A stretch of DNA of 64,000 bases. It comes from Verrucomicrobiota bacterium (GTDB taxonomy: Bacteria; Verrucomicrobiota; Verrucomicrobiia; Limisphaerales; SXTU01). Position 1 is the first letter of the stretch. Every line of letters begins with the position of its first letter. Positions 16,773-59,103 of this stretch are shown here, in pieces. Below the pieces are notes generated by a model. That model made no database searches. It was not told the DNA's origin and saw only the letters and a list, made by a program, of their open reading frames with translations. A program made the translations under genes and the position numbers. Location of the stretch: contig VHDH01000001.1 in the NCBI GenBank assembly GCA_016871445.1, positions 875 to 64,874 on the forward strand, in the 5' to 3' direction.

Positions 16773-16789
16773 ACTGTTTTTACCCGCGC

Positions 16790-28945: not shown

Positions 28946-29062
28946 TAATGTGACCGATGGATGGAGTTTGCCAACCGGCGTCTGAGTCCAATGGATAAAA
29001 TCAGGGTCGCCGTCGTGTTTCCCATTCGCATTACGTAATTCGTATGCCCGATCATCTTAGGT

Positions 29063-36793: not shown

Positions 36794-38464
36794 ATGACTA
36801 TCGCAGACATTCTCACCCGCAAAGGTCTGCTCACCGCCGAGCAGTTGGCCGACGCGCAATCGCTCACTGATAGCGAAGGTTTGCGCCTCGACCGCGCCGT
36901 CGTGCAGAAGGGCTTACTCACGGAAAAGCAGTTGCTCGAAGTCTTTGCTGAGCAGTTACATCTTCCCCTAGTATCGCTGGAGGATCGCTCGTTTGATGCG
37001 GAACTGCTCCGCACCTTGCCCTCACGCGTAGTCTATCGCCAACGGCTGGTGCCGGTCGCGCGCGTGGATGGAGCTTTGCAAGTTGCTACGAGCGACCCCC
37101 TCGACCTCTACGCCTTCGATGACCTGCGCCTCACCACCGGGCTAAACATCGAGCCTGTGCTCGCCCCGCGCGAGGAGATCGAGAAGGTCATCAAGACCCA
37201 CTACGGCCTCGGCGGCGACACGTTGGATGAAATGGTCGGCGAAGACGACGCGCCCGCCGTCGCGCTCGAAGCCGGCCACGGCGAAGACCTGCTAGAAGCG
37301 GCGCAGGAAGCCAGCGTCATCAAGCTGGTCAACGAGATCATCCTCGAAGCTGTGAACGAGCGGGCGAGCGACATTCATGTTGAGCCATTTGAATACCAAA
37401 TAGCTATTCGTTACCGCATTGACGGTGTGTTGCAGGAGGCGCCTGTGCCGCCGCAGATGCACCGCTTCGCCGCCGCCATCATCAGCCGCATCAAGATTTT
37501 GGCGAACCTCAACATCGCCGAACGCCGCATCCCGCAGGACGGTCGCATCAAGTTCAACGTCGGCGGTCGACAGATTGACGTGCGCGTGAGCGTCATCCCG
37601 ATGCTCTTCGGCGAGGGCGTAGTCATGCGCTTGCTCGATAAGGCAAACGTGCTTTTCACCCTGCCGCAACTCGGCATGGATGACCGATCCTTCGGGCTGT
37701 TCAAGGGACTCATAGACCGGCCGCATGGCATTTTCCTCGTCACCGGCCCTACCGGCGCGGGCAAGACCACCACGCTTTACGCCGCGCTCAACGCCATCGT
37801 CGGCCCCGGCCTCAAGGTGCTAACGGTCGAAGACCCGGTGGAATACAACCTCACCGGCGTGAACCAAATTCCGGTCAACACGGCAGTGGGCATGACCTTC
37901 GAGAAGGGCCTGCGCGCCATCCTGCGTCACGACCCGGACGTAGTGATGATCGGTGAAATCCGTGATCTGGAAACCGCCCGCGCCGCGATCCAGGCCGCGC
38001 TCACCGGCCACCTCGTGCTCTCCACGTTGCACACCAATGACGCCGCATCCGCGCCAATGCGGCTCATTGACATGGGCGTGGAGCCGTTCCTCATCAGCAG
38101 CACGATGATTGGCTCGATGGCCCAGCGTCTCGTGCGCCGCATCTGCTCCAAATGTAAGACAGAATATGAACCCGATCACGCGCACCTGCCTAACGACTTC
38201 GTCCTCGCGCCCGGGGAAAAACTCTGGCGCGGTGCGGGCTGCCCGAACTGCCGCAACACCGGCTATCGTGGCCGAAGCGGCCTCTACGAACTCATGGTGA
38301 TGAGCGACGCCATCTCTGAGAAGATCATCGAACGCGCGCCCGCATATCAGGTCTTGGCCGCCGCCCAGCAAGGTGGCCTGCGCCTCCTCCGCGAGGATGG
38401 CTGGGACAAAGTTCGTCACGGCATCACCACACCGGATGAAGTACTGCTATGCACCGCGGGGTGA
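36794..38464 (+). CDS. gspE: Type II secretion/type IV pilus assembly ATPase (GspE/PilB)
   Basis: ASDIHVEP, ERRIPQDGRI, Walker A GPTGAGKTTT, TVEDPVEY, LRHDPDVVMIGEIRD, TGHLVLSTLHTND, tetracysteine CSKC..CPNC. Confidence 0.95.
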   Translation: MTIADILTRKGLLTAEQLADAQSLTDSEGLRLDRAVVQKGLLTEKQLLEVFAEQLHLPLVSLEDRSFDAELLRTLPSRVVYRQRLVPVARVDGALQVATSDPLDLYAFDDLRLTTGLNIEPVLAPREEIEKVIKTHYGLGGDTLDEMVGEDDAPAVALEAGHGEDLLEAAQEASVIKLVNEIILEAVNERASDIHVEPFEYQIAIRYRIDGVLQEAPVPPQMHRFAAAIISRIKILANLNIAERRIPQDGRIKFNVGGRQIDVRVSVIPMLFGEGVVMRLLDKANVLFTLPQLGMDDRSFGLFKGLIDRPHGIFLVTGPTGAGKTTTLYAALNAIVGPGLKVLTVEDPVEYNLTGVNQIPVNTAVGMTFEKGLRAILRHDPDVVMIGEIRDLETARAAIQAALTGHLVLSTLHTNDAASAPMRLIDMGVEPFLISSTMIGSMAQRLVRRICSKCKTEYEPDHAHLPNDFVLAPGEKLWRGAGCPNCRNTGYRGRSGLYELMVMSDAISEKIIERAPAYQVLAAAQQGGLRLLREDGWDKVRHGITTPDEVLLCTAG

Positions 38465-38524
38465 GGGAAAACGTAACGATACGAGTAAATCTGTGAAAAT
38501 TCGCATTATTACTCTCCGAGTAAA

Positions 38525-39727
38525 ATGACCCAGTTCACCTACACCGCCATGACCGAGGCCGGGCAGCGTGTCTCCGGTTCGCTCGAAGCCGAGAGCGAGG
38601 CGTCGGCGTTGCGGTTGCTGGAGGACCAGCGGCTGTTTCCCGTCACCGTGGCTGGCGCGTCAGGCACGGATGACGGCAAGCCCGCCCGCCGCAAGGTCCG
38701 CTCCCGTGACCTCGGCGTGCTCTATGGTCAACTCGCCGACTTGCTTGGGTCTGGCGTGCCGCTCTTGCGTGCGCTGGATTCTCTCATCCGCTCGACGCCG
38801 GCACCCGCATTGCGTGAATTGCTCAAGGAAATCCGCGCCGCTGTCGCCGAGGGCAAGACGCTCACCGAAGCGCTGCGGCCGTATCCGGAAATTTTCCCCA
38901 CGCTACATATCGCGATGATCCAGGCGGGCGAACGCGCGGCGTTCCTTGAAGCCGTGTTGCGGAATCTCTCGGGCTTCCTCGAACGCTTCGAGGAATTGCG
39001 GAGCAAGGTGATGGGCGCGCTCATTTACCCGGCGCTGCTCACTACGCTCGGCACGCTCGTGATGGTGGGCGCGCTGGTGTTTTTCGTTCCGCGCTTCGAG
39101 CCGTTGCTGGCCGCTGCGAAGAAGCCGCTGCCCACCGAGATTCTGTTTGGCGCGAGCAAGCTGGTGCGAGGCTATTGGTGGTTGCTGCTCATTGGCGGCG
39201 CGGGCGCGGGCTTCTTCCTCTGGCTTAACCTTCAGACGGAGGCCGCACGGCGGAAGTTGGAGGCGTGGCAACTCAAAATCCCCGTGGTTGGCGAAGCGCT
39301 CCGGTTGTTGGCGATTACGCGCTTCTGCCGCATCCTTGGTACGATGCTTGCCAACGGCGTACCGTTACTTTCCGCGCTGAAGATCGCCCAAAACGCCACC
39401 GGCTCGACCATCCTCGCCGAGCGCATCGCCGAATGCACCGAGTCCGTGCGCGACGGCAAGCGTCTGTCTGAACCGCTGGCGAAGGGCGGCTTCTTCCCCG
39501 ACCAAATCCTGGCGATGATCGCTGTCGCCGAGGAATCCAACAAACTAGATCACGTCCTGGTACAAATCGCCGAAACCGTGGAGCGCCGCACCAACCGCTC
39601 GGTGGACCAAGCGGTGCGGCTCATCGAGCCGTTGATCCTCTGTTTTGTCGCGGCCGCGATTGGCTTCCTCGCACTTGGTTTGCTGCTGCCCATCTTCACG
39701 ATGGCCAGCGCGCTGGGCTCTAAGTGA
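38525..39727 (+). CDS. gspF: Type II secretion inner-membrane platform protein (GspF/PilC)
   Basis: QLADLLGSGVPLLRAL, MIQAGE, ALIYP, GTMLANGVPLLSAL, EPLIL; three TMs. Confidence 0.95.
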   Translation: MTQFTYTAMTEAGQRVSGSLEAESEASALRLLEDQRLFPVTVAGASGTDDGKPARRKVRSRDLGVLYGQLADLLGSGVPLLRALDSLIRSTPAPALRELLKEIRAAVAEGKTLTEALRPYPEIFPTLHIAMIQAGERAAFLEAVLRNLSGFLERFEELRSKVMGALIYPALLTTLGTLVMVGALVFFVPRFEPLLAAAKKPLPTEILFGASKLVRGYWWLLLIGGAGAGFFLWLNLQTEAARRKLEAWQLKIPVVGEALRLLAITRFCRILGTMLANGVPLLSALKIAQNATGSTILAERIAECTESVRDGKRLSEPLAKGGFFPDQILAMIAVAEESNKLDHVLVQIAETVERRTNRSVDQAVRLIEPLILCFVAAAIGFLALGLLLPIFTMASALGSK

Positions 39728-39906
39728 GGCCCAGGTTGGCGACGGGCAGTCGCTCGTACCGGATGGGTTCGGCAGGTTCAGATCGGGCTCGCGTTCTCCA
39801 TCCGAAAACAACGGTAAGTAGCCAGGTGAACGGATGAAAAATTCTTTCTAAATGTCAAATTTCTCCTGAATCATACCCTCAAGCTCCCGTCTTAATAAGG
39901 TTACAC

Positions 39907-40428
39907 ATGAAGTTGAACCTGCTTTTAAAACAGAATCGGTTCCCGCCTCGCACGGCGGGTTTCACGCTCATCGAGGTATTGCTGGTCATCGTCGTCATCC
40001 TGATGCTTGCTGGTGCGATGGTGGTCTTTGTCCTCCCCCAGCAAAAGGGCGCAGAGAAAAACACCACCAAGCTTCTTCTCGCGCAGGTCGCCAACGCGCT
40101 CGACACATACCGCCTTAACCTTGGTCATTACCCCACCGAGCAGGAAGGCGGCCTAGATGCGCTCTCGAAAAAACCCACCTTTGAAAACGAGCGCATGGGC
40201 GAGAAGTGGCAGGGGCCATATCTTAAACCCGGCACGACGTTGGATGACCCGTGGGGCTTTAAAATCCGCTATGAGAGAGTTGCTGCTAGCGGGGACAACG
40301 CAGAGGCCGGCAACACCACGGCCCTGCCATACAAGCTCTTCTCCGTAGGTCCCGACGGCCAGCCCGACACAGACGATGATATTAAACACGGGGCCGAGCC
40401 TGCCGGAGCGGAAAACACCGGCCGCTAA
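39907..40428 (+). CDS. gspG: Major pseudopilin GspG
   Basis: Prepilin site G|FTLIEVLLV; T2SSG motifs ALDTYRL..GHYPT...GLDAL, WQGPYL, DPWG, S.GPDG...TDDDI. Confidence 0.92.
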   Translation: MKLNLLLKQNRFPPRTAGFTLIEVLLVIVVILMLAGAMVVFVLPQQKGAEKNTTKLLLAQVANALDTYRLNLGHYPTEQEGGLDALSKKPTFENERMGEKWQGPYLKPGTTLDDPWGFKIRYERVAASGDNAEAGNTTALPYKLFSVGPDGQPDTDDDIKHGAEPAGAENTGR

Positions 40429-40431
40429 ATC

Positions 40432-41546: not shown

Positions 41547-41548
41547 AC

Positions 41549-42343
41549 ATGCGCCTCCCCCGTCATCCTTGCAGCGACCGATGTCAGGTGGTTCTGGCCT
41601 CCCAGGCCGCATTTACTCTTTTGGAAGTCGTCTTCGCCATCGGCATCGCCACCGGTATTCTCGTCGCGGCGCTTGCCTTCCATCATCAAGCCACTGCTTT
41701 GCGCGCGAACCTCCTCGACGAAGCAGAACGCCTCGCCGCCGTTCGCCAGATCATGGACCGTCTCGCTGCCGACCTCCGCGTCGCACCGGGTTACAACCAT
41801 GTCGGCTTCATCGGTGACTCAAATTCTCTGCGCTTTGTAACCACCCGCTTGCCGCTCACGCCCGTTGGCTTCGACTCCGACCTGCGCCGCGTGACCTACC
41901 GCGCCACCTTCTCCGGCGACGCCACCAACCTCACTGTTAGCGGCCTCTCACGCCTCGATGAACCGGCCGTGGAACTCATCGCCTCCCCGCTTACGTCAAC
42001 TGCCGCCACAGGGACGACGACTGAACCGGTCGGTGATGCAGCGGAGGAACTCGCCGCCAGCGTCACGAACGCGACCTTGTCCGTCGCTGGCGCTGCCGAG
42101 CCGCTCACCGAATCGATTCGCTTCCTGAATTTTCGTTTCTGGGACGGCTCTGCGTGGCGTGACACATGGAGCGGCGTGGCTCCGCCGCCCGGGGTGGAAA
42201 TCAGTCTTGGCTTCGAGTCGCTCCCCGCCGACATGACCCCCGACATGTACCCGGGTGAGGTCTTCCGCCGTGTTATCTTCCTTCCCGCTGGCCAGCCAAA
42301 ATCAGCGGAGGAGAATCTTGTAGTCCGCTTGAACCAACAGTGA
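41549..42343 (+). CDS. gspJ: Minor pseudopilin, GspJ-like
   Basis: A|FTLLEVVFA, MDRLAADL, LNFRFWDGSAWRDTW, PPGVEISL. Confidence 0.8.
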   Translation: MRLPRHPCSDRCQVVLASQAAFTLLEVVFAIGIATGILVAALAFHHQATALRANLLDEAERLAAVRQIMDRLAADLRVAPGYNHVGFIGDSNSLRFVTTRLPLTPVGFDSDLRRVTYRATFSGDATNLTVSGLSRLDEPAVELIASPLTSTAATGTTTEPVGDAAEELAASVTNATLSVAGAAEPLTESIRFLNFRFWDGSAWRDTWSGVAPPPGVEISLGFESLPADMTPDMYPGEVFRRVIFLPAGQPKSAEENLVVRLNQQ

Positions 42344-43953
42344 ACTTGTGCTTTCAACGCGAGCAAACTCGCCTGCCTTATCTCGCTTTCCAAGCGCGAG
42401 AAAAGTGGCGCGTGGGGACTCATTCCTCCGCTTTCGCCCTCGTCGCTGTGCTCGTCATGGTGATGTTGCTCTCGATGCTTGTCATTAGCTTGCTGTTCAG
42501 GTTTCAGGCAGAAGACTCCGCTGCAAGCGCGAGCGTTAACGGCGAGCAAGCATGGGCGGCGGCGATGAGCGGCGTCGAGGAGGCGCTGCGCGTTGCCAGC
42601 ACCGCCGCCCCCGGTGCCAACGACTGGCAGGACAATCCGGGCGCTTTCCGCGAGCGGCTTGTCTTCGACGACGGCGGCGAGCGTTGGTTCTTCTCTGTCT
42701 TTACGCCGAGCGCGACGCCCGGCGAAGTCCGCTACGGTCTCGCCGACGAGGCTTCCAAGCTCAACGTCAACGTCGCCGCTGGTGCCAGCCTCGAGAAGCT
42801 CCCGCGCGTTTCGCCCGCCATGGCTGCCGCGCTCGTTGACTTTCTCGACCCCGATGACATACCGGAGCCAGAGGGCGCAGAGCAGGAGTATTACAGCGCC
42901 TTGGCTCGGCCTTATACTATTCGCAATGGCCCGCTGGCATCGCTTGACGAGTTACTGCTCGTGCGCGGTTTTACGGCGGAAATTCTCCATGGCGCGGCGG
43001 CGGCGTCCGCTAACTTGACCAACGAAGAACCCTCCACGGCCAGTGCTAATACCCGCGTCACGCGCGGCCTCAGCCAGTTCCTCACGGTGGCGTCTTACGA
43101 ATTTAACACCGACGCCGACGGTTGGGACCTCACGAACTTGAACGACCCTGCGTCACCATTGCCCAGCACTGACCGCTTGCCCGCTGCCGTCACGAATTTC
43201 ATCAGCGCGCTCCGAACAAACGGCGTGACGCTCAGCCATCCCGCCGAATTGCTTGAAGCCACGTTGCTCATCAAGACCGCGAAGGGCGCCATGACTGAGA
43301 TCTCCTCTGGCGTGGGCAAGGCTGAGTTGGCTGCTGTACTCGAACTCTTCACCGCCTCCGATTACTACTACACCGATGGCCTCATTAATGTGAACACCGC
43401 CAGTGCCACCGTGCTTGCGACGTTGCCTGGCGTGGATGAGGCGCTCGCCGAGACCATCGTATCCGCGCGCGGAGCGCTTGGCGCAGGCCGTCGGACAACC
43501 ACGGCGTGGCTATATCAGGAGGGCGTGCTCGATGCCGCAAAGTTCAAAGCCCTCGCGCCACTGCTCACCTCGCGCAGCGAGCAATTCACGTTCTGCGTCA
43601 TTGGCTATGGCCTGCCTTCGGGCCGCTTCCGCGTGCTGGAGGTGGGCATTGACGTGGCCGGTGGTGACCGCCGCGTGACTTACCTCCGCGATGTGACACG
43701 GCGCGGCTTGCCGTTCCCGATTGCCGGCGAAGCCGAGGGGCAAGTGACGAAGCTCGAAAGCCCAAGTGCGAAAGTGAAACGCAGCTCCCAACTCCCAGCT
43801 CCAAATTTTCAATATACTCCAAGCTCCAAGCTGCCAATACCAAGGCGCGCCTCCAATTTCCCGCATGCGAATCTAGATTCAGAGCAGGCAACGTCTCTGG
43901 TGCTAGGACCTTGGATCTGGGGGCTTTTTTCCTCGGAGGTTTGCCATGGCTGA
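42340..43953 (+). CDS. gspK: Minor pseudopilin, GspK-like
   Basis: A|FALVAVLVMV (no Glu5, typical of GspK), DEASKLNVN, EQEYY, NGPLASLDELLLVRG, INVNTAS..VLATLPGV. Confidence 0.85.
   Translation: MNLCFQREQTRLPYLAFQAREKWRVGTHSSAFALVAVLVMVMLLSMLVISLLFRFQAEDSAASASVNGEQAWAAAMSGVEEALRVASTAAPGANDWQDNPGAFRERLVFDDGGERWFFSVFTPSATPGEVRYGLADEASKLNVNVAAGASLEKLPRVSPAMAAALVDFLDPDDIPEPEGAEQEYYSALARPYTIRNGPLASLDELLLVRGFTAEILHGAAAASANLTNEEPSTASANTRVTRGLSQFLTVASYEFNTDADGWDLTNLNDPASPLPSTDRLPAAVTNFISALRTNGVTLSHPAELLEATLLIKTAKGAMTEISSGVGKAELAAVLELFTASDYYYTDGLINVNTASATVLATLPGVDEALAETIVSARGALGAGRRTTTAWLYQEGVLDAAKFKALAPLLTSRSEQFTFCVIGYGLPSGRFRVLEVGIDVAGGDRRVTYLRDVTRRGLPFPIAGEAEGQVTKLESPSAKVKRSSQLPAPNFQYTPSSKLPIPRRASNFPHANLDSEQATSLVLGPWIWGLFSSEVCHG
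43785..43923. repeat. Heptamer-periodic (CTCCAAG-like) imperfect inverted repeat inside the gspK 3' end
   Basis: CTCCCAA CTCCCAG CTCCAAA ... ACTCCAA GCTCCAA GCTGCCAA TACCAAG, then complementary-type CTGGTGC TAGGACC TTGGATC TGGGGG. Confidence 0.55.
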
Positions 43954-46611: not shown

Positions 46612-46624
46612 ACATTTTCCCCTT

Positions 46625-49600: not shown

Positions 49601-52600
49601 GACCTGAAGGACGCCGAGAACATCATCCAGCGCCTTGATAATGAGGGCATTGACCCGTCGAGTCTGGAAAAACCCAAGGGCATGAAGCTTGTCGAAGTGC
49701 GCGGCGATGCTGACGCGCTCGCTGCGTTGGCCACGCGCATCTTCACAGCGCAAGCCGGGCGCAGCGCGTTGACGAATCTCGTGAGCATCACACCGAACGG
49801 CAAACGTCTTATCGTGCTAGCGCCTGAGGCGATGCTGCCGCAAATCGAGGCACTGGTGAACTCGCTTGATGCAAAGCCTGATGAGTTGCAACGCGAGCTG
49901 CATCCTATCGTGCTTAAGAACGCCTCCGCCACGGAACTGCTGCCCAAGGTCACGGCAATTTACTCCGAGCAGTCCGCCGGCAAGACACAGAAGCCCGCGA
50001 CGATTTACGCCGACGCCAGCGGCACGCGGCTCAATGTCTTCGGCACGAAGCAGCAGGCCGAGGCGATTCAGCAGATTGCCGACACGCTCGCCGGGAGCGC
50101 GCCCGCGACGCGCGAGACGAAGCTGATTGACCTCGGCAAACTCACCGAAGCCAAGCGTGTGATGGCGCTCGCACTCCAGCTCTACAAAGACCAGTTCGCC
50201 GCCAACCCTCAGCTCGGCCCTGCCGACGCGCAGATGGTCAGCGACGGCGTCTCTGGCCGCGTCATCGTCAGCGCGCGCGCGGACCAGATGAAAGCCATCG
50301 AGGACATCTTCAAGCGGCTCGAACTCACGCCCGCCGCCTCGGCCGCGCGCGAGACGCGCATGATTGAAGTTGGCTCCGCGAACGACGTGGCGCGGCTGCT
50401 GCCCATTGTGCAAAAGCTTTATGCCGAACAGTGGAAAGACCGACCCGAGACCGACCCGGCGGACGCGCAAATCGTCGCCGACCCGCAGGGCGGGCGCGTC
50501 ATTGTCACAGGCCGGCCGGAGCACGTGAAGGAGATTGAAGGCATCTTGCAGAAGCTCGGCACGGCTAAGGCCAAGCCGCAGGCGCGCGAGACGCGACTCT
50601 TCGATCTTACCACCGCCAGCGCGACAGAATTGGTCACGACCTTGAAGGTGCTTTACACCGAGGACGCCAAGGCGCGCTTTGGCGCACAGACGCCGGATAC
50701 GCTAATCATGGCCGACACGAGCGCGAACCGGTTAATTGCGGTGGGTGACACGGTGGAGCTCGAAGCTGTCGCCGGGCTGGTGAAGAAACTCGATTCCAGC
50801 GCCGCGCAAAGTTCAACGGCGCGGGTATTCAAGATTAAGTCCGCCGATCCGGCGAAGGTTGCCGAGGTGCTCACCACCGCACTGGTGCGCTTTGACGCGC
50901 TGGGCCGCGCGCAGAAGCGCGTGAGCGTCTCAGTGGACGCGAAGACCCGCACTCTCATCGTGACCGGCGATGCCAAGGAACTCGCCGCTGTTCCCACGAT
51001 CATTGAACAACTCGATCAGTCACTCGGAGAACAGCCGGAGCGGAAAATACAAACTGTGCAGCTTAACTCCACGACCCCGAACACGCTGCTTTCGCAGGCA
51101 CGCAAACTTTACGACGACCAAATTAAGACGCAGCCGGAACTCACCGTGTCCGAGTTGCTCGTGATGGATGATGCCAGTGGCAGCCAGCTCATCCTCGCCG
51201 GCAGCGACGCGCAGTTGAAGTTGTTCACCCGCATCTTAGATGACCTGCAAAAGCTTCAAGTCACGCCCGGTGAGCGGGTGACTAAGTCGTTCGACCTTGG
51301 CCCAGCCGATGAGGTCACGCGGCTTGTGCCACTGGTGCGCTCGTTCTACGAGGAGAAGTGGCGCACGCGGCCGCTCTCGGACCCGGCGGACGCGACGTTC
51401 CTGCCTGACACGCGCAACGGCCGCGTCATTGTCACGGGTCGCACGAACCACCTTGTGGAGATTGAGGCGTTGCTCGGACAGTTGCGCGATGGGGCGGCGA
51501 TGGAGCCGCGCACCACGCGTTTTTTTGACCTGACCAGCAGCGATGCCGGCATGCTGGTCGCCACGTTGCGCCCGCTGTATCTCGAACAAGCTAAACTGCG
51601 GCCCGGTGCACCGGCGCAGAATACGCTGATCCTCGCGGAGACAAATTCCAACCGCCTCATCGTGACCGGTACGGCTAATGAGCTGAGCGTGGTCGAGCAA
51701 CTCGTCCGCGAGTTGGACAAGGCCAGCCCGCAGAGCGCCATTGCGCGTATCTTCAACCTTAAGACGGCCGACCTCGCGCAAGTCTCGGAAATCCTCACCA
51801 ACGCCTTTGTGACGGCAGACCGCATCGGTCGCTCGACCAAACGCATCAGCGTGGTGGTGGACGCCAAGAATCGCAGCTTGATTGTCACAGGCGAGGTACG
51901 TGATTTGCAGGCGGTGGGGAAATTGATTGAGCAAATCGATGCTTCGCCCGCGAGCACAAACCAGGTGCGCTCGATGCGAGTCTTCGCGTTGAAAGGCCGG
52001 CGGGCGACGGAGACCGCGCCGAAGATTCGGCAAGTGTTTGAGGAGCGCGCGCGCAGCTTGCCGGAGGTCGGCACAGCGGGCGCGGTCATCGTCGAAGACA
52101 TCCCCGGCAACCAGTTGATTTTCGTCGGCACTGAGGCGCAGCTCGCGCTCATGCAGGAAACCGCCGACGTAATGGATAAAGCTGGTACAACGCTCGGCCG
52201 CGAAGTGCGGGTGTTTCCGTTGGAGCGTAATTCTGCTGACGCCGTGGTGGTGATGCTCAACCGCCTGTTCCCGCGTCAGACCGGCACCACGGATCGCGAG
52301 GACCGCATGCTCATCAGCGCCGGCGGCGACGACAACACGCTCATCGTGGACGCGACCCGAACGGATTTAGACAAGGTTGAGCAGCTGCTGCGCGTGATGG
52401 ACGCTTCACCCGCCGGCGACAAGACGACTTTCCACGCCGTACGTCTCACGAAGGGCAAAGCCGAGGAAGTTGCGACCGCTGTGACCGAGTCGTTCACCGC
52501 GAAGCTGGGCCGGGGAAAACTACCGCGCACGACGGTGACGCCCGTCAATGGTGCAAACACGCTGCTCATCAACGGCCCGAACGGTGAGGTCGAGAACGTG

Positions 52601-55600
52601 CTAAAAATCATCCAGTCGCTCGATGTGGAGATGAAGGGAGACGAGGTCGAGATTCGCATTTACAAGTTGGAGAACGGTACGGCGAAGGAAGTTTCTCTCA
52701 TCATTGAGCAGTTGCTTCAAGGGATGGGCCGCGCCCGCGCCCGCGCCGCGGCGAATGTGACCGTGGACCCGCGCGCTAACTCGCTCATCATTTCTGGCAC
52801 GCCCGCTCACTTCCGCGTGGTGGAAAAGGTGCTGCCGACGCTCGACAAAGCCCCTGAGCGCGCTGACCGCGATGTGCAGTTCGTGTGGCTGAAGAAGGCG
52901 AAAGCGTTCGACGTGAGCGCGAAATTGGAGGCGCTGTTTAGCGAGCGGCCCAAGGGAGAGCAACCGCTCATCGAGCCGGACGTGATGAACAATTCCCTCA
53001 CCGTCATCGCCAAGCGTGCCGACCTCGCGCAAATTCAAGACCTCATCACGCGCCTCGACGAGCAGAGCAAAGACAACAGCATCCAAGTCCGCCTCCGCCC
53101 GCTGGACCGCGTCGTGGCCGAGCAGATGGCGAAGATGTTGCAAAGCATCTATCCGCAGATGTCGCGTGGCACCGTGCGAGTGGTGGAGAAATTGGATCCA
53201 CTTAAGCCCGCCGCGACCAACGCGCCCGCTACCAAAGCCCCGGCCAATGCGCCTGCTGCCCAGCCGCAAGCTGCCGTCGCGGACACGAACGCAGTCCCCG
53301 AGGTCGTCATCGCGGTGGATAAAAACGCAAACTCGCTTTTGCTCTCCGGTCCAGCATCGGAATTGGACAACGTCGAGCGCATCATTAGCGACCTCTCGCT
53401 GAACTTTTACAGCAACGAGGCCGAGTTCCGCCTGTTCCCGCTCAAGGACGCTGACCCCATCGTCGTCGCGCGCACGTTGAATGAGTTGCTCCGCATGCCG
53501 CCGGTGGCCGTCACGCCGCAACGGCCCGGCGAACCGGTCCGAACGGTGGAGCAACCGCCACGCATCACCGTCGTGGCCGAGCAGCGCACCCGCAGCGTGG
53601 TGGTGCGCGCGCGGCCTACGGACTTTGCGTTGATGGAGTCGCTAATCAAGCAACTCGACAGCGCGGGCCAGACAGCCCAGCTCGATTTTCGCAGCGTGCC
53701 ACTCACCAATGCGCCGCCGGAGAAAGTCCTGCCGCTCGTGCAGCAGCTGGTCACCCAGCTCAACCTCATCCGCCCCGGCGAGCCGCTCACGGTGGTGATT
53801 GACCCCCGTTCGCGCGGGCTGCTGGTCGTCGCGCGCGAGGCCGTCATCCTTCAAGTGGAGAAGATGATTCAATCGCTCGACAAACCTGCGCCTTATATCG
53901 AGGCCGAGGTGATGGTGTTCCAATTACGGAAGGCGAATGCAACCTCCCTCGCGCTTGTGTTGCAAAACATGATTCGCCCCGGTCCGCAGGGGACGCAGTC
54001 GCCTGAAGCCCGCGAGTTGCAAGAGCAAATTCGCCGCCTGCGCGTGCTGGGCGAAGATGGGGAGGCCGTCTCGCTTGACCTCACCAAGCCCATCAAAATC
54101 AGTGCCGACGGCACGGGCGGCGGCAACCGCCTGCTACTCACCTCCACGCCGGACAACCTCAAGGCACTCGCTGCCGTCGTCGAGTTGATGGACACGCCGC
54201 AAATCACCGAGGGCGTGAACGTCCGCATCATCAAACTCCAGCATGCCGACGCAGCGACCGTCTCGACCACGTTGCAGAGCATCTTCACCCAGGGCCGCAC
54301 GCTTGCCACCGGCCCCGGCGGGCCGGGCGCGCAGCCCGAGGGCCTAACCGGCAAGGCACTCGTCAACCCCGTCGGCATCGGTGTGGACGCGCGCTCGAAC
54401 ACGCTCATCCTCAGCGGTCAGAACGAATCCATCGAGCTGGCCTCGAAACTGGTGGAAGACCTCGACAAGGCAGTGGACCATCCCGTCACGGAAGTCCGCC
54501 TGTTCCGGCTGAAACACGCGTCTGCCGCGCGGTTACTGCCGATGCTGCAAAGTGTCTTCGCTGAAGGCGCGCCGGTGCCTGGCACGGAGGGTTTGAAGAC
54601 GCAGGTTACTCGGCTTCGCACGTTGCGCGAGGCAAACACGCCGCGCGTCACTGATGCCGCGAAATCCCGCGCCGCGCTCGCCATGCAGGCGGATGATTTC
54701 TCGAACATCCTCATCGTTGCCGCTCGCAGCGACATGCTGCCGCTCATCGCCGATGTCGTAGAGCAACTCGATATTCCCTCCGCCTCCGGCTTGGAAACTG
54801 TCCGCATCTTCCCACTCGCGCATGCGGACCCAGCGGCGGTGCAAAAGGTGCTGGCTGACCTCTATGCTGGTCAGCGCGCCGGCACCGTTCGTAACGAAGA
54901 TAAACCCGTCATCACACTCGATGACCGCACCGGCTCGCTCATCGTTGCGGGCAACGCAAAAAGCTTCGCCATAATCGAGGGCCTGCTTCAATCGCTCGAC
55001 CGCCAGTTGCCCTTCGACCTGCGCGACATTCGCATCCTGCCGCTGGAGAACGCGGACGCAAATGTCGTCGCTGGCACATTGCAGAAGCTCATGGATGCGC
55101 GGCTCACGCAGCGCGCGCAGTTGAACAAGTCCCAGGCCGACGCGCTTAAGGTCATTATCCTCGCCGATCAGCGTAGCAACGCCCTGCTTGTGGGCGGCGG
55201 TCGCGACGCCTTCGATATGGTGCAGATGCTCGCGAAGCAGCTCGACACACCCGGAGCGGCGTTAAGTGGACGCATCCGCTTGGTAGCCGTTCAATTCGCG
55301 GACGCGCGCCTGTTGGCTGCGACGCTGACGACGCTCTTCGAACAGCGTTACTCCACCGCCCGCGCGACCGACGTGCAGCGGAACAAGCCGGTGATTCTCC
55401 CTGACCCGCGCAGCAACAGCTTACTCATCACCGCCAGCCAGGAGGACAACCGTGCGATTGATGAGCTGCTGCAACGCCTCGACACGCGGTTAGACAACCC
55501 GGCACTCCAACTCACCGTGCTGCCACTCAAGCACAACGACGCTGCGCGCGTGGCTGCAATGATTGAGAGTATCTTCGCCGCGCGCCGCACCGCGCAGACC

Positions 55601-58444
55601 CTCCCCGGTCAGCCGCCCTTACCCAACACGCAAATCAAGCTGGAGCCGGACCCGCTGAACAACTCGCTCGTCGTTTCCGCCAGCAAGGAGAACGTGGAGT
55701 TGATTCAGGACTTGCTGAAGAAACTGGACGCCGAGCCGGCCATCGCGGGCGGCGTGCTAGAGGTGTTCCCGTTGCAGTTCGCGGACGCCACGCGCGTCGG
55801 GGCATTACTGACTTCACTCGTGCAGCAGGGGCTTTACCGGCCCGGCCAGTTACCCGGCGCGCCGCGCGCGACCTCCATGGACAAGCTCGCCGTGACTGTG
55901 GACCCGCGCAGCAATTCACTCTTTGTTAGCGCCAGCCCAGAAACCATGACTGTGGTGCGCGAGGTCATTAAACGCATGGACGTGCAGGAGCAGAACCTGA
56001 CCGGCGACGTGAAACTCTTTCAACTTAAGAACGCCCGGGCCAGCACGCTCGCCGCGACACTCACGCAGTTTTTCACCGCCAAGCAGGCCGCTGACACCGC
56101 ACTCATCGCCAACGCTAATCAGCGCCGCCTGCCCGCCACCGTTATTGCTGACGACCGCGTGAACACACTGCTCGTGACCGGCGGGAAGGAAGCGTTCGAC
56201 TTCGTTGAGCGCCTGCTCCCGCAACTCGATGGCGAGGGGACCTTCAACAAGCTGAATTTCCGCGTGTTCCCGTTGAAGAAGGCCACGGCGCAGAAACTAC
56301 AAGCGACGTTGCAGCCTATCTTCGCGAATCGCCCGCCCCGTGTGCGAGGCGAGCCGAACGACCCCATCACCATCATCGCCGATGCGTGGGTAAATGCGTT
56401 GCTCGTGGGCGCAAACGTTGAGGACCTGAGCGCGATCGAGTCACTCATCAACCAACTTGACACCGATCCGATGCCAAACGGACTCGCCATCCATGTCTTC
56501 CCGCTGGCCAAGGCGGACGTGCGGAAGGTGGCGCTGACCGTGCAAGGCTTGTTCCGCGATGGCCCGCCCGGCCAACCCGGCCAACAGACGCAGGTGCAAG
56601 TCACGGCGGACGAGCGCATCAACGCGCTGGTCGTGTCCTGTGGCGAGGTGGACGCCCGGCGCATAGCCGAATTGGTAAAGCGCCTCGACACCGAGCAAGT
56701 CGCGCGCGTGGCCGAGATCCGTGTCTTCCCGCTAAAGCACGCTCGCGCCGAGACGCTTTCAACCATCCTCAACACTGCGTTGAACACCAAGCCCACGCCG
56801 CTTTCCGACCAACAAAACCCTAACGCGCAGTCAGTGCTTCAATTCATCACGCGTTCGAACGAGGGCCGCGAGCTGATCACGGCAGCGTTGAAGGAAGCCG
56901 TCTTGATCACGCCTGACCCACGCATGAATTCGCTCATCGTGAGCGGTCCAGTGGATTACATGGGCCTGCTGGAACAGATCATCAGCCGGCTCGACGCAAG
57001 CTCGCCGCAGGAGGCGAAGATTAAAGTCTTCGCCCTAAAGAACTCCTCTGCCCGCGCCATGGCGGACATTCTCACGCAAATGTTCCGCATGACGGCAACG
57101 GCGACGACGGCCAGCCAGCGCACAATCCAATACACCCTTGTTCGCCCTGGCGGCACAAATGACGCCGCCAGCGCAACGCTCGGCTCAGCGGAACAGACTT
57201 CGCTCACAGTCACCGTGGATCCACGCACGAACAGCTTGCTCGTGGGCGGCACGGATCATTACGTCAAGATGGTTGAGCAGATCATTGAGTCGCTCGATAC
57301 CTCCACGGCGAATGACCGGCGCACAGAAGTAATTCGTTTGAAAAACACGCAGTCCTCCGACGTGGCAGGCGCGGTCCGTAACTTCCTCGACCAAGAACGC
57401 CAACGCGTGACGCAAGTGCTCGGCGCGGATGCCGTCGGAGCCGCACAGCAGATGCTTGAGCGGGAAGTTGCCGTGGTGGGCGAGACGAACAGCAACACGC
57501 TCCTCCTCTCCGCCAGCCCGCGTTACTTCACTCAGGTACAAGACTTGATCAAGGAGCTCGATAAGTCCCAGCCGCAGGTGATGATCCAGGTTGTGCTAGC
57601 AGAAGTGGCACTGAACGAGGGGCGGGATATTGGCTTGGAGTGGAATGTGTCCGGTGGACCGACCTATTCGGCCGGCCTTGGATTGGGTTTAGCGAACGCG
57701 GTGAGGAACGGTTTCACGGCTGCGCTTACAGGCGGTGATACTACCTTTATTCTTAAGGCGTTAAAGGATCAATCCAAGTTAGAAGTCCTGAGCCGGCCGC
57801 AGATCGTCACGGCGGACAACAAGCCTGCGAGTATCAACGTGGGCCAGCGCGTGCCGCTCATCACCGACAGCCGTGTGACTGTGCAGGGCGACACTATCAA
57901 CTCCTTCCGCTACGAAGACATCGGCGTTAACCTGACCGTCACGCCCAAGATCAGCCTCGACGGCTTTGTGAAGCTCGAGTTGGGCACGACTAATTCTTCG
58001 CTCGCCAGTTCCGACGTTAAGATCAATGCGTCCGCTACCGTACCTGTCATCAACCAACGCCGCGCCAACACCACCGTGAGCGTGCAGAATGGCCAGACCA
58101 TCATCATCGGCGGCCTTATCGGCACACAGGAAGACCGCCGCGTGCGCCGTGTGCCGGTGCTCGGCGACATCCCCTACCTTGGCGCAGCGTTCCGCAGCAC
58201 CAAGATCACGAAAGAGCGGAAAGAGCTGTTGATCTTCCTCACGCCGCAGATTCTCGCGAACAACAATCAGGATCCGGTGCCGCTGACTGATCCGGCCAAT
58301 GCGCTGCGCGAACAGATAGACCGTTCCCGCATCAGCCCAGAACTCAAGCGCAACGAGTTCAACCAGCCAGTGCTGGAGCCAATTTTTCCGGCCCCACCGG
58401 CCCCGCCGACTACCCCCAGCGGACGTAAGCCCACCGGTTCATAA
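46625..58444 (+). CDS. gspD: Giant secretin (GspD family), about 3,939 aa: signal peptide, N0, 43 N1/N3-type repeats, secretin core
   Basis: Signal peptide MNRTHPPLLALALLVGTFTLAA; N0 (IRFQFDGIPYGDVIERFAQMAG); repeats of R.F.L..A.A...L..L...D.RSN.LIV.G......I..LD; core QVMIQVVLAEV...LSRPQIVTADN...GQTIIIGGLI...VPVLGDIPYLGAAFR...ELLIFLTPQI. Confidence 0.92.
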   Translation: MNRTHPPLLALALLVGTFTLAAQDAPKAPAVAVPATNAPTKAVTIAPSTAAPASNARNIRFQFDGIPYGDVIERFAQMAGKPLLAGNKPEGTLTYNDPNAYTYGEALDTLNVVLAMKGVMLVENANYLQLVPFKELPSTPLKLLRGAAPVGDVRPGEVVTAVLDAKNVDSKEITDSLTSMLSSAGSMAVLPRGRGIIITDRLANIQRIKTLLATIDIEAPAERMMKTFALQNSSGAIVADLLNRTFGVATAPRRQEFNPNTKAMQILPPDPNEYITAVYDDASRTMVLFGPRERIALAEELIAKFEQREGPSGDVRIYQLQSTKADEIAMIIRQAIPGVAEPKETGSAAATKARVIADSQQNRLIVASPVAGQLEQIDLLISRVDKGTTGNVNTNNAPLRVQSVMLTKVFRPRATEPKDFAQIVTQALTRRDPGGRAGITASVIHDPGSKTVVISGTLGDLQTATEILTQLETGTSQPQALQTRFIEVGTAADAKRLLPLVEELYRNQMSGAGALDSGAHAKLMSDDNGRLIVTASEAHLIRVEELVKQLRGKNGVVMNRQLSIIALKNTKLDAILAGFEKLLSDRMADRRFEGQPKPSVVPDNANNRVLVTATPEQLKEIEQLVQVVDVAPATQRREMVVLPVRAKTPAEIITLATQLLAQMGGAGADPQMEPKLIPDASGKQIILLAAQKDLQRVRELVTQLDTATIQNLARQFRSVELNARSAAELTPLVTQLYQEQLKGQNEPPGGAATVLADAKNNRIMVSGADAEITRVEAIIRQLDPAGRKPARDETRVFRLRAALAAEISGLVEKSLNAQAQTVKVLVDARSNSLILSGEPDAVEAASKVIQQLDTPGDVQPREMRVMELKQGDAAAIAALATPLVTELLKSQRGPEYSPTVKIIADAASNRLIISGPRNELLAVNTIVEQLDQAPEGAGGARVFKLNNATALKVVGVVSNAMVKFDARNQPIRRITVSADPDSNSIVVAGTRQDLKDAENIIQRLDNEGIDPSSLEKPKGMKLVEVRGDADALAALATRIFTAQAGRSALTNLVSITPNGKRLIVLAPEAMLPQIEALVNSLDAKPDELQRELHPIVLKNASATELLPKVTAIYSEQSAGKTQKPATIYADASGTRLNVFGTKQQAEAIQQIADTLAGSAPATRETKLIDLGKLTEAKRVMALALQLYKDQFAANPQLGPADAQMVSDGVSGRVIVSARADQMKAIEDIFKRLELTPAASAARETRMIEVGSANDVARLLPIVQKLYAEQWKDRPETDPADAQIVADPQGGRVIVTGRPEHVKEIEGILQKLGTAKAKPQARETRLFDLTTASATELVTTLKVLYTEDAKARFGAQTPDTLIMADTSANRLIAVGDTVELEAVAGLVKKLDSSAAQSSTARVFKIKSADPAKVAEVLTTALVRFDALGRAQKRVSVSVDAKTRTLIVTGDAKELAAVPTIIEQLDQSLGEQPERKIQTVQLNSTTPNTLLSQARKLYDDQIKTQPELTVSELLVMDDASGSQLILAGSDAQLKLFTRILDDLQKLQVTPGERVTKSFDLGPADEVTRLVPLVRSFYEEKWRTRPLSDPADATFLPDTRNGRVIVTGRTNHLVEIEALLGQLRDGAAMEPRTTRFFDLTSSDAGMLVATLRPLYLEQAKLRPGAPAQNTLILAETNSNRLIVTGTANELSVVEQLVRELDKASPQSAIARIFNLKTADLAQVSEILTNAFVTADRIGRSTKRISVVVDAKNRSLIVTGEVRDLQAVGKLIEQIDASPASTNQVRSMRVFALKGRRATETAPKIRQVFEERARSLPEVGTAGAVIVEDIPGNQLIFVGTEAQLALMQETADVMDKAGTTLGREVRVFPLERNSADAVVVMLNRLFPRQTGTTDREDRMLISAGGDDNTLIVDATRTDLDKVEQLLRVMDASPAGDKTTFHAVRLTKGKAEEVATAVTESFTAKLGRGKLPRTTVTPVNGANTLLINGPNGEVENVLKIIQSLDVEMKGDEVEIRIYKLENGTAKEVSLIIEQLLQGMGRARARAAANVTVDPRANSLIISGTPAHFRVVEKVLPTLDKAPERADRDVQFVWLKKAKAFDVSAKLEALFSERPKGEQPLIEPDVMNNSLTVIAKRADLAQIQDLITRLDEQSKDNSIQVRLRPLDRVVAEQMAKMLQSIYPQMSRGTVRVVEKLDPLKPAATNAPATKAPANAPAAQPQAAVADTNAVPEVVIAVDKNANSLLLSGPASELDNVERIISDLSLNFYSNEAEFRLFPLKDADPIVVARTLNELLRMPPVAVTPQRPGEPVRTVEQPPRITVVAEQRTRSVVVRARPTDFALMESLIKQLDSAGQTAQLDFRSVPLTNAPPEKVLPLVQQLVTQLNLIRPGEPLTVVIDPRSRGLLVVAREAVILQVEKMIQSLDKPAPYIEAEVMVFQLRKANATSLALVLQNMIRPGPQGTQSPEARELQEQIRRLRVLGEDGEAVSLDLTKPIKISADGTGGGNRLLLTSTPDNLKALAAVVELMDTPQITEGVNVRIIKLQHADAATVSTTLQSIFTQGRTLATGPGGPGAQPEGLTGKALVNPVGIGVDARSNTLILSGQNESIELASKLVEDLDKAVDHPVTEVRLFRLKHASAARLLPMLQSVFAEGAPVPGTEGLKTQVTRLRTLREANTPRVTDAAKSRAALAMQADDFSNILIVAARSDMLPLIADVVEQLDIPSASGLETVRIFPLAHADPAAVQKVLADLYAGQRAGTVRNEDKPVITLDDRTGSLIVAGNAKSFAIIEGLLQSLDRQLPFDLRDIRILPLENADANVVAGTLQKLMDARLTQRAQLNKSQADALKVIILADQRSNALLVGGGRDAFDMVQMLAKQLDTPGAALSGRIRLVAVQFADARLLAATLTTLFEQRYSTARATDVQRNKPVILPDPRSNSLLITASQEDNRAIDELLQRLDTRLDNPALQLTVLPLKHNDAARVAAMIESIFAARRTAQTLPGQPPLPNTQIKLEPDPLNNSLVVSASKENVELIQDLLKKLDAEPAIAGGVLEVFPLQFADATRVGALLTSLVQQGLYRPGQLPGAPRATSMDKLAVTVDPRSNSLFVSASPETMTVVREVIKRMDVQEQNLTGDVKLFQLKNARASTLAATLTQFFTAKQAADTALIANANQRRLPATVIADDRVNTLLVTGGKEAFDFVERLLPQLDGEGTFNKLNFRVFPLKKATAQKLQATLQPIFANRPPRVRGEPNDPITIIADAWVNALLVGANVEDLSAIESLINQLDTDPMPNGLAIHVFPLAKADVRKVALTVQGLFRDGPPGQPGQQTQVQVTADERINALVVSCGEVDARRIAELVKRLDTEQVARVAEIRVFPLKHARAETLSTILNTALNTKPTPLSDQQNPNAQSVLQFITRSNEGRELITAALKEAVLITPDPRMNSLIVSGPVDYMGLLEQIISRLDASSPQEAKIKVFALKNSSARAMADILTQMFRMTATATTASQRTIQYTLVRPGGTNDAASATLGSAEQTSLTVTVDPRTNSLLVGGTDHYVKMVEQIIESLDTSTANDRRTEVIRLKNTQSSDVAGAVRNFLDQERQRVTQVLGADAVGAAQQMLEREVAVVGETNSNTLLLSASPRYFTQVQDLIKELDKSQPQVMIQVVLAEVALNEGRDIGLEWNVSGGPTYSAGLGLGLANAVRNGFTAALTGGDTTFILKALKDQSKLEVLSRPQIVTADNKPASINVGQRVPLITDSRVTVQGDTINSFRYEDIGVNLTVTPKISLDGFVKLELGTTNSSLASSDVKINASATVPVINQRRANTTVSVQNGQTIIIGGLIGTQEDRRVRRVPVLGDIPYLGAAFRSTKITKERKELLIFLTPQILANNNQDPVPLTDPANALREQIDRSRISPELKRNEFNQPVLEPIFPAPPAPPTTPSGRKPTGS

Positions 58445-58455
58445 GTTTTCCACCT

Positions 58456-58998
58456 ATGATGGCCCGCTTCTTGCCGCGGCGGCTGCTGCCCGCCGCTCCG
58501 CTTCCGCTTTGTTCGGGCGTTTGGTTGCTGGTGCTGATCTTGGCGCTCGCTGGCGGACCAGGCTGCGGTTCATTACGGCTGGGCGGCGATGATCAAGAAG
58601 TGCAGGAATTGCATCTGCTGGTGGCGCCGGGCGCGTTGCCATCCCTGGCTTCGCCCCGCCCCACCGGCCTTGTGGTGCGGGTGTTCGCCAGCAGCCGCGT
58701 ACGGGCGAAGGGCCTGCCCATCCGCGCAGGCACCCTCGAAATCATGGCCTATGACGGGACTATCCCGGACGCCGCATCACCCGCCCGCCCACCCGCACAG
58801 CTGTGGGTCTTTCCGGCGGCGAAGCTCGCGGCCCTCGCCGCTACCAGTTCACTTGGCACCGGCTATGAGTTGGAACTTCCATGGCAGGGGCCGCGTCCGA
58901 CGGCCGGCCGGCTGGTGATCATGGCCCGCTTGGTGCCGCCCCGCACCGGCCCCGCGATTTTCACCGCGCCAAGCGTGATCCCCAACGGGCTGAAGTAA
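58456..58998 (+). CDS. Putative lipoprotein of unknown function (candidate pilotin)
   Basis: Basic N-terminus, hydrophobic stretch VWLLVLILALAGGPG|C with an atypical lipobox; 11 bp after the secretin stop; beta-rich mature part. Confidence 0.6.
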   Translation: MMARFLPRRLLPAAPLPLCSGVWLLVLILALAGGPGCGSLRLGGDDQEVQELHLLVAPGALPSLASPRPTGLVVRVFASSRVRAKGLPIRAGTLEIMAYDGTIPDAASPARPPAQLWVFPAAKLAALAATSSLGTGYELELPWQGPRPTAGRLVIMARLVPPRTGPAIFTAPSVIPNGLK

Positions 58999-59103
58999 CC
59001 GCGAACTGGCCTAGATCAGCGTGATGCAGATAGGAGCTTAGTCGGCCTTTTTTGGCGAGGTCCTCCTTTACGGCGATCATTGAGTCTTCACGAGAGCCCG
59101 ACT

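Follow-up and report, generated by a model that had tools for sequence, protein, structure and literature searches.

What does a secretion operon do with a secretin about six times the usual length? The question is raised by positions 36794-58998 of a 64-kb stretch of DNA (the window), a region that encodes, in this order, GspE, F, G, H, I, J and K, a GspL-like protein, a GspM/PilO-like fusion, a giant secretin and a lipoprotein. The periplasmic neck of a secretin normally consists of one to six rings; the secretin of this operon holds an N0 domain followed by about 43 further N-domains of the ring-building kind. We propose, with a probability of roughly 0.55, that the operon encodes a type II secretion system (T2SS)-type machine of the type IV filament superfamily, whose secretin serves as a long secretion conduit docked at both membranes. 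The evidence supports a distinct subfamily of T2SS-type machines.

The host is a freshwater bacterium of the Limisphaerales/Pedosphaerales, phylum Verrucomicrobiota, represented by a metagenome bin of 236 contigs that is 95.6% complete. Near word-for-word copies of the stretch occur in 20 lake-water or freshwater metagenome runs, 19 of which date from 2018 and may belong to one campaign. For positions 45000-54999, the runs listed included no RNA run.

A T2SS-type operon built around a giant secretin

Checked at the coordinates of Table 1, all eleven open reading frames (ORFs) are intact, lie on the plus strand and are separated by short gaps or overlap, just as an earlier note on this DNA had described them for the span 36794-58998. 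The gene-by-gene parse of that note, E-F-G-H-I-J-K followed by an L-like and an M-like gene, was recovered by Pfam and NCBIfam matches. T2SS models top the NCBIfam ranking for every operon component that was recognised, and T2SS models are the best Pfam or NCBIfam matches for E, F, G, H, I, K, M and D. Judged by these profiles, the parse is right and the system divergent, the latter because only GspG and the secretin exceed the NCBIfam equivalog cut-offs.

The longest secretin ORF opens at a TTG codon at 46508. We take the ATG at 46625 as the likely start, because a signal peptide follows it and because it lies 13 nt past the preceding stop (46611). The 11.8-kb size and the intactness of the gene, both claimed in the earlier note, stand with this correction of the longest-ORF start.

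Pfam recognised Secretin_N in 37 stretches of the protein (1138.8 bits) and a single Secretin domain. An iterated profile built on the secretin itself gave 45 hits, which merge into 42 domains, three of the hits corresponding to the opening strand of a domain that contains an insertion; successive domain starts are mostly 70-90 residues apart. A probable N1 domain lies just ahead of this array, at about residues 150-220. The Pfam N0 model found no match in the giant secretin itself; its residues 23-243 align with the N-terminus of an ordinary secretin from contig C21 of the same genome, which does carry Pfam type_II_gspD_N0.

At the other end of the protein, the pore-proximal 640 residues or so were compared with PDB sequences, and the ten best of the 22 matches are all T2SS GspD proteins (150.9-109.8 bits), with PilQ at 96.8 bits or less. 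The NCBIfam GspD profile is matched above its equivalog cut-off, residues 3428-3881 aligning to profile positions 126-594 of 600, and no AMIN domain was found by Pfam in the giant secretin. The protein has a GspD-type N0 and pore, yet its length and its N-domain number place it outside the N0-N3 plan of 600-800 aa. With tens of Secretin_N domains, an N0, one pore and more than 2,000 aa, it belongs to a family of giant multi-N-domain secretins, whose members the databases label 'secretin N-terminal domain-containing protein' or GspD.

The 42 domains of the array are mutually 28.7% identical on average and 55.6% at most. One four-domain block has been duplicated once (50600-51940 and 51800-53300; domains 14-16 and 18-20 are 52-56% identical), a trace of array growth.

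We found no paper on multi-N-domain giant secretins in the full-text literature, a search that left most subscription journals and supplements outside. The main text of Boedeker 2017 mentions neither 'secretin' nor 'type II secretion', and that of a 2025 review of Planctomycetota mentions none of 'secretin', 'type II secretion' and 'T2SS'. New here are the verrucomicrobial version of the system, the marker fusion with its predicted N0 contact, the tallies of co-occurrence and synteny, the constancy of the domain count and the ordinary secretins encoded in the same genome.

The gene is intact, selected and conserved

A frame of this size could be a mis-assembled repeat or a pseudogene that yields no functional protein, and the fragmentation of the bin invites the suspicion, as do a frame break (L057), a gap of N (L029) and truncated gene calls in some related loci. 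The data make this reading hardly credible. The 3,939-codon frame is uninterrupted, and given the low mean identity of its copies the DNA is not repetitive and offers nothing to mis-assemble. Contigs from four of four independent lake metagenome runs tile 45500-59100, with 30 of 30 bins covered at even depth; across this interval the four runs show base substitutions only, with no insertions or deletions. A few low-depth 'joints' with sides of about 20 letters in the read cover were taken as noise. The ratio of nonsynonymous to synonymous substitution rates (dN/dS) against two same-genus orthologues is 0.088 and 0.107 over about 1,300 codons, as computed on loci L017 and L023 after four reverse-oriented comparisons had been discarded, and indicates purifying selection. 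Divergent copies, even indel-free cover and a dN/dS near 0.1 together led us to reject an assembly or tandem-repeat artefact.

Conservation points the same way. All 19 genomes of the same genus match the first 1,000 residues of the secretin at 85-91% identity; 12 of them hold uninterrupted frames of 3,877-4,007 aa, the remaining seven being shorter or cut in fragmented assemblies. In other families of the order the frames run from 3,213 to 4,260 aa.

A search of the protein collection with the last 640 residues of the secretin turned up 540 related proteins, 2,166-6,894 aa long. The closest relatives, by the names of their sources, are metagenome-assembled genomes (MAGs) of Limisphaerales, Pedosphaera or Verrucomicrobia. 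Relatives labelled Phycisphaerae or Planctomycetes are 5,440-6,165 aa long; they share 49-51% identity with these 640 residues, and 53-62 N-domain hits were counted in them. Among the 120 relatives listed, the number of N-domain hits follows protein length (r = 0.99) and ranges from 23 to 62, the maximum being reached in a relative of 6,038 aa. In the rows sampled from these 120, relatives of about 3,900-4,050 aa mostly have 42 hits, even at about 60% identity, and lineages differ by whole-domain steps, from 26 to 62 hits.

Close relatives of normal length, the finding that the earlier note had foreseen as counter-evidence, were looked for among the 120 best relatives of the pore-proximal part that are shorter than 2,166 aa. 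None of the 120 has an N0 domain, and where the contig is long the protein begins partway through a domain; these proteins are therefore fragments of giants, and we rejected them as normal-length relatives. The distinct, conserved subfamily proposed in that note gains support from the genus-wide matches, the 540 relatives and the linkage described below. Its label as a type of the Planctomycetes-Verrucomicrobia-Chlamydiae (PVC) group suits the secretin, with its relatives labelled Phycisphaerae and Planctomycetes, and goes beyond what was seen of the fusion protein, which in our samples, drawn from Verrucomicrobiota, was found in one order.

A GspM-like protein with a predicted GspC-like domain

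The gene ahead of the secretin encodes a 347-aa protein without a Pfam match, and its profile found nothing below E = 1 among PDB sequences. NCBIfam GspM_XpsM matches residues 8-162 at 24.1 bits (cut-off 60), and the 657 homologues are all unnamed. In the AF2 model (mean pLDDT 70.6), a long N-terminal helix that includes a membrane span is followed by a ferredoxin-like domain, a proline-rich linker and a beta domain at residues 244-326. Fold comparison by VIA covered residues 1-172 and superposed residues 68-172 on Pseudomonas PilO (2rjz_B; Z 10.7, root-mean-square deviation 2.0 Å over 93 residues), with further matches to EpsM (Z 7.5), the periplasmic domain of XcpY (Z 7.0) and PulM (Z 6.6). 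The top Foldseek match is Myxococcus PilO, at E 1.7e-4.

The C-terminal domain (residues 236-340) was then folded together with secretin residues 50-222, alongside three controls. The three runs gave ipSAE values of 0.67, 0.67 and 0.71, the best control 0.00. In an approximate calibration, made with our own alignments, the 0.67 mark is attained by 58 of 80 solved complexes and by 2 of 110 mismatched pairs. Between runs, at least 96% of contacts are common, and the partner has a pLDDT of at least 86. In the predicted complex, strand 246-254 of the C-domain pairs with strand 58-67 of N0, and the interface on the secretin comprises residues 56-67, 70-78 and 96-103. GspC-HR and PilP sit on N0 in the same strand-pairing geometry.

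The structure models thus support a GspM-GspC(HR) fusion. The 'M/C-like fusion' of the earlier note agrees with the PilO/GspM fold of residues 68-172 and with the predicted docking of the C-domain on N0. As a single-copy gene, the fusion can serve to mark the system, and it brings with it one specific predicted contact, between its C-domain and N0.

Linkage and distribution of the system

A pattern scan with the fusion protein over named genome records returned 95 relatives, of which 80 loci were kept, all from MAGs. A secretin frame follows the marker gene in 54 of the 56 loci with at least 3 kb of downstream sequence. Where at least 9.9 kb is available, the frame reaches 3,200 aa or more in 39 of 43 loci; of the four exceptions, one has a gap of N and one a frame break, and in the other two the secretin lies elsewhere. 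The genes from G to M follow one another as G-H-I-J-K-L-M in 53 of 55 loci, and E and F lie within 10 kb upstream in 21 of 31. At the locus studied here, gspF and gspG are 179 nt apart (39728-39906), and this gap, together with the presence of E and F nearby in merely 21 of the 31 loci, suggests that the E/F pair and the block from the pseudopilins to the secretin may be separate transcription units.

Within the order, the marker occurs in 86 of 301 genomes sampled, corresponding to 61 of 200 high-quality genomes and 41 of 143 genera; none of 400 other genomes sampled from the phylum has it. Marker and giant secretin also occur together. Among 21 genomes of other families, all three with a giant secretin (G020, G026, G039) are marker-positive, and at least 16 of the remaining 18 are listed as marker-negative. 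In family f155, five of five genomes have both the marker and a giant secretin (3,412-4,127 aa), the two genes lying on different contigs in four of them. In genus g287 (G691, G556, G598, G665) the secretin contig is separate from the E-to-M cluster, and in a sister genus (G633) the two are adjacent. The single-contig genome G580 also carries the system.

Several public MAGs that bear the operon (L029, L033-L036, L038, L044, L086 and others) are evidently mislabelled as Klebsiella, Akkermansia muciniphila, Bifidobacterium, Proteobacteria or Methylomirabilota.

Components of the operon

Table 1. Genes of the operon and domains of the giant secretin, in window coordinates
Feature	Position	Strand	Basis
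GspE-type assembly ATPase, 556 aa, N-terminal MshEN	36794..38464	+	Pfam T2SSE 442.6 bits, MshEN 69.9 bits
GspF-type inner-membrane platform protein, 400 aa	38525..39727	+	Pfam T2SSF 185.5 bits, two stretches
Major pseudopilin GspG, 173 aa	39907..40428	+	Pfam T2SSG 70.6 bits, N_methyl 27.7 bits
GspH-like minor pseudopilin, 233 aa	40432..41133	+	Pfam GspH 22.1 bits (cut-off 21)
GspI-like minor pseudopilin, 138 aa	41130..41546	+	NCBIfam gspI best model; position between H and J
GspJ-like minor pseudopilin, 264 aa	41549..42343	+	Mainly position; prepilin-like A-F-T-L-L-E motif
GspK-like minor pseudopilin, 537 aa, helix-hairpin-helix insert	42340..43953	+	Pfam T2SSK_1st 53.9, T2SSK 28.5, HHH_3 51.8 bits
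GspL-like platform protein, 541 aa: PilM-like head, one span, periplasmic tail	43946..45571	+	Pfam PilM_2 31.5 bits
GspM/PilO-like protein with C-terminal beta domain, 347 aa, marker gene	45568..46611	+	PilO/GspM fold, predicted N0 docking
Giant secretin, 3,939 aa, 11.8 kb	46625..58444	+	Signal peptide, N0, about 43 N-domains, T2SS-type pore
Secretin N0 domain	46787..47029	+	About residues 55-135; predicted dock for the C-domain of the GspM fusion
Array of 42 Secretin_N-type ring-building domains	47309..57565	+	Residues 229-3647, period about 77-80 aa, own iterated profile
Secretin pore domain	57758..58255	+	Residues 3712-3877, Pfam Secretin 165.9 bits
Conserved lipoprotein, 180 aa, Ig/FN3-like beta sandwich	58456..58998	+	Homologues, lipobox, AF2 model

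The assembly ATPase is GspE-type at family level and falls short of the equivalog level: its top NCBIfam model is type_II_gspE (615.3 bits, cut-off 630.25), ahead of the PilB model (572.5 bits). Against PDB sequences, Myxococcus PilB matches over the full length at 490.5 bits and EpsE over the catalytic part at 431.1 bits. The first 54 residues or so (36794-36955) match the NCBIfam model of an MshE-related cyclic di-GMP-binding motif at 36.1 bits (cut-off 38). As far as such a motif can tell, the machine may be switched by cyclic di-GMP. For the platform protein GspF, the NCBIfam GspF model scores best (327.8 bits, cut-off 424).

The major pseudopilin, on the other hand, exceeds its cut-off (typeII_sec_gspG, TIGR01710, 96.8 bits against 88.85), and its translation reads a prepilin motif G-F-T-L-I-E. 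The GspH-like protein has weak matches to NCBIfam XpsH and gspH. GspI and GspJ were assigned through position and prepilin motif, with scores below the cut-offs, and are weak assignments: 31.7 bits for NCBIfam gspI (cut-off 44.35) with no Pfam match, and 18.6 bits for Pfam T2SSJ (cut-off 28) with 17.4 bits for NCBIfam gspJ. GspK reaches 99.3 bits with NCBIfam T2SS_GspK (cut-off 130).

In the GspL-like protein the PilM-like head alone was matched, by PilM_2 over residues 50-191 and by NCBIfam pilM at 37.3 bits, and a hydrophobic span can be read from the translation near residue 360. The T2SSL model had no match in the Pfam scan of the operon products.

The earlier note had listed a separate gspC, gspN, a prepilin peptidase and PilT as lacking at this locus, and gspC, the peptidase and PilT are indeed absent from it. 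The gspC family (PF11356) has no match in the whole genome, at its 95.6% completeness, and no separate gene in the operon. The sole Peptidase_A24 gene of the genome lies outside the operon, on contig C183, and PilT-type ATPases are found on contigs C35 and C96. T2SSM (PF04612) gave only sub-threshold matches, elsewhere in the genome. No GspN model matched the eleven operon products in the Pfam and NCBIfam scans, which did not include a GspN family search.

The terminal lipoprotein has 349 homologues and no Pfam match; the lipobox residues G36-C37 are nearly invariant in 60 sequences. Its AF2 model has a mean pLDDT of 83.3. Foldseek found no match at E <= 0.001 (best 4.1e-3), and the VIA matches, none of them specific, were Ig/FN3 domains of similar score (best Z 9.1). 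The lipoprotein gene follows the secretin in seven of seven loci from other families. Our guess is that it may be a pilotin, a collar or an accessory protein.

Comparison with known systems

The canonical proteobacterial T2SS (Gsp/Pul/Eps/Xcp) shares with this operon the co-linear genes for E, F, G, H, I, J, K, an L-like protein, an M-like protein and D, a GspG and a GspD above their equivalog cut-offs, a pore nearest to solved GspD and the lack of a retraction ATPase at the locus. It differs in the size of the secretin, solved GspD chains having 387-657 aa whereas the protein here has 3,939 aa and about 43 N-domains. Moreover, the genome studied here has no PF11356 GspC, for which the C-terminal domain of the GspM-like protein is the predicted substitute, and the head of its L protein is of the PilM type. 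General scans of the operon products, which did not extend to a GspN family search, gave no match to a GspN model, the terminal lipoprotein is Ig/FN3-like and matched no solved pilotin, and most components lie under their equivalog cut-offs.

The type IVa complex of PilM, PilN, PilO, PilP and PilQ provides other parallels, namely a PilM-like cytoplasmic domain, a PilO-like fold (Z 10.7) and a beta domain predicted to bind N0 as PilP does. However, in this operon M and N are fused in the GspL-like protein, and so are O and P; the pilins are of GspG/H/I/J/K type, no AMIN domain was matched, PilT is not in the locus and the pore is nearer to GspD than to PilQ. Separate PilM, PilN, PilO and PilP proteins, a PilQ with AMIN, a PilT and a PilA-type pilin, which together mark a type IVa pilus system, are not what the locus encodes.

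Among individual secretins, the PilQ of Thermus thermophilus also lengthens its periplasmic channel with extra stacked N-domain rings, as the sequence suggests for the giant. PilQ, however, has 757 aa and six rings and works in a type IVa pilus system with retraction ATPases, whereas the giant, with 3,939 aa and about 43 rings plus N0 as counted from the sequence, belongs to a T2SS-type operon. The giant secretins of Planctomycetota resemble it in their many Secretin_N domains and single pore and are longer (5,440-6,165 aa). The slime 'nozzles' of cyanobacteria and myxobacteria are a case of PilQ/GspD-family secretins used beyond classical exoprotein release (PMC12475490). A term search of that paper gave no hit for 'N-domains', and no polysaccharide genes are linked to the operon described here.

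A proposed mechanism

Mechanistically, GspE, GspF and the GspL-like and GspM-like proteins would form an inner-membrane platform that polymerises a GspG pseudopilus with GspH-I-J-K at its tip. The secretin would be the outer-membrane channel, its periplasmic part enlarged from the usual three to six ring-building domains to about 43 in addition to N0. In place of GspC, the beta domain at the C-terminal end of the GspM-like fusion would connect the platform to the secretin base, pairing one of its strands with the first strand of N0 as predicted in the complex models. Because of this pairing with N0, the N-terminus of the secretin would sit at the inner membrane and its C-terminal pore in the outer membrane. 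If stacked as oligomeric rings, the roughly 43 domains would form a continuous tube, through which a correspondingly long pseudopilus would drive the cargo. The lipoprotein probably aids targeting or stability of the secretin. We infer that the cargo is most likely folded exoproteins, for example the many sulfatases and glycosidases of these bacteria, and that the machine acts at sites where the inner and outer membranes lie far apart.

The Thermus study describes PilQ as having six stacked N rings in a complex 350 Å long that spans a wide periplasm, places this six-ring protein among the largest secretins characterised and gives 12-19 subunits as usual for secretins (PMC5745081). At 3-4 nm per ring, after the 350 Å of PilQ, 43 rings would make a tube of about 130-170 nm, and the usual 12-19 subunits would bring the complex to roughly 5-8 MDa. 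The stacking itself, the length of the tube and the number of subunits are here carried over by analogy.

Several points weigh against this proposal. E, F, I, J, K, L and M all stay under their NCBIfam equivalog cut-offs, and all carriers seen are metagenome-assembled genomes. The GspC-HR/PilP-like character of the C-domain is a prediction from complex modelling, its score may reflect likeness to the solved GspC-HR:N0 and PilP:N0 complexes, and the calibration of that score, with our own alignments, holds roughly. The 43-ring stack, the subunit number and the rise per ring are extrapolated from secretins of three to six rings. So long a pseudopilus would imply a pilus-like machine rather than a piston. 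No cargo was identified, the sulfatase gene upstream of gspE being matched in one of 80 related loci (L029).

The envelope itself sets a further limit. A straight tube of this length needs a site at which the two membranes are far apart. The earlier note had suggested, among other possibilities, an adaptation to a much longer trans-envelope path, which the data do not show. The same genome encodes ordinary secretins of 785 aa (in a cluster on contig C42), 955 aa (C152) and, as a pair, 627 + 397 aa (C21), as well as an AsmA/YhdP-like bridge protein whose 1,056 aa are an ordinary length. A width of 130-170 nm throughout the envelope is therefore excluded, and envelope width by itself does not account for the giant. 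The strain Ellin514, a member of Verrucomicrobia subdivision 3, is presumably related to the order of the host. It has a ribosome-free outer compartment, the paryphoplasm (PMC2647929). For planctomycetes, such a compartment has come to be read as an enlarged periplasm, with infoldings of the inner membrane (PMC5394234). By analogy, it is conceivable that the inner membrane lies locally far from the outer one.

Alternative explanations

The tube could instead be a spacer or 'press-stud' first and a channel second, that is, a fixed-length strut that sets the distance between outer and inner membrane in an enlarged PVC-type periplasm, with secretion secondary or occasional. The nearly constant domain count of relatives of about 3,900-4,050 aa that share some 60% identity, and the whole-domain steps between lineages, would suit such a strut, as would anchorage at both ends, with the pore in the outer membrane and N0 predicted on an inner-membrane protein. 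But a passive strut needs neither ATPase nor pseudopilus, and here the full set of G, H, I, J and K stays linked and intact together with the ATPase. In Planctopirus, structures of this kind keep the membranes close rather than apart (PMC5394234), and the occurrence of the system in 86 of 301 genomes of the order does not fit a general envelope component. We consider this reading unlikely. A narrower proposition combines it with the conduit: a tube of fixed length, more than 100 nm long, of several megadaltons and 40-60 stacked rings, anchored at both ends, would be a ruler for the enlarged PVC periplasm and at the same time the sheath of a long pseudopilus. To this we hold tentatively, at clearly less than even odds.

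The affinities of the platform raise a different alternative, an extrusion nozzle: rather than release folded periplasmic enzymes, the tube would ensheathe an extracellular type IV-like fibre or lead slime or polysaccharide out of the cell. In its favour, type IV pilus PilB is the top PDB match of the full-length ATPase, and the platform proteins are PilM- and PilO-like; the major subunit, however, exceeds the GspG equivalog cut-off, a GspK-type tip protein is present, the pore domain is nearer to GspD than to PilQ, and the operon has no retraction ATPase and no gene for polysaccharide synthesis or export, all of which leaves the nozzle distinctly doubtful. Still more improbable is an uptake device, in which tube and pseudopilus would import polysaccharide, protein or DNA into the periplasm, as has been proposed for planctomycete fibres. 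Planctomycetes take dextran into an enlarged periplasm, with binding by fibres and by a route across the outer membrane that is not known (PMC5394234). The helix-hairpin-helix module of GspK would count in favour of uptake, but such an insert is normal for GspK and is also present in the second, ordinary T2SS-like locus on contig C21. To our knowledge, macromolecule uptake has not been reported for the order of the host; no retraction ATPase lies at the locus, and neither ComEA/ComEC nor sugar-binding genes are linked to it. The long secretion conduit is the reading that we retain.

If the doubly anchored tube of fixed length described above exists, it would be the longest periplasmic channel known and a candidate for the unidentified trans-periplasmic connectors and fibre-bearing outer-membrane complexes of PVC bacteria, and it would allow macromolecule export, or even import, from deep inner-membrane sites. 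A conserved and selected family with about 43 inferred rings, and up to about 60 in relatives, breaks with the picture of secretins as one- to six-ring structures. It raises the questions of how the neck fits in the envelope, how far the pseudopilus reaches, where cargo enters and whether the domain number gauges periplasm width in PVC bacteria, a group with a cell plan under dispute for decades. Given the abundance of its carriers in lake water, the machine may contribute to polymer turnover in that habitat.

Neighbouring genes and other loci of the genome

Immediately upstream of gspE, at 35242-36765, lies a sulfatase gene with at least 13 further paralogues in the genome. It is probably not dedicated cargo of the machine, because this neighbour was matched in only the one related locus named above.

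Rfam at gathering thresholds gave no match in the window, and a terminator scan at the end of the operon found two candidates against 1.7 expected, which is chance level.

Contig C21 carries the second T2SS-like cluster (3887-16895; L121:887-13895), with E, F, G, K, a PilM-like L, a 184-aa M-like gene and a 390-aa EF-hand protein. Its secretin is split between different frames, a 627-aa ORF with N0 and three Secretin_N domains and a 397-aa ORF with half a Secretin_N domain and the pore; the split may reflect a frameshift or a sequencing error, or the secretin may genuinely consist of two parts. The PilT-type ATPase on contig C35 belongs to a PilB/PilT cluster.

Within the window, the AsmA/YhdP-like protein of 1,056 aa belongs to an envelope cluster on the minus strand (21611-30016), together with DUF4340, a GldG-like ABC auxiliary protein and an ABC ATPase, and an HtrA-type protease is encoded alongside.

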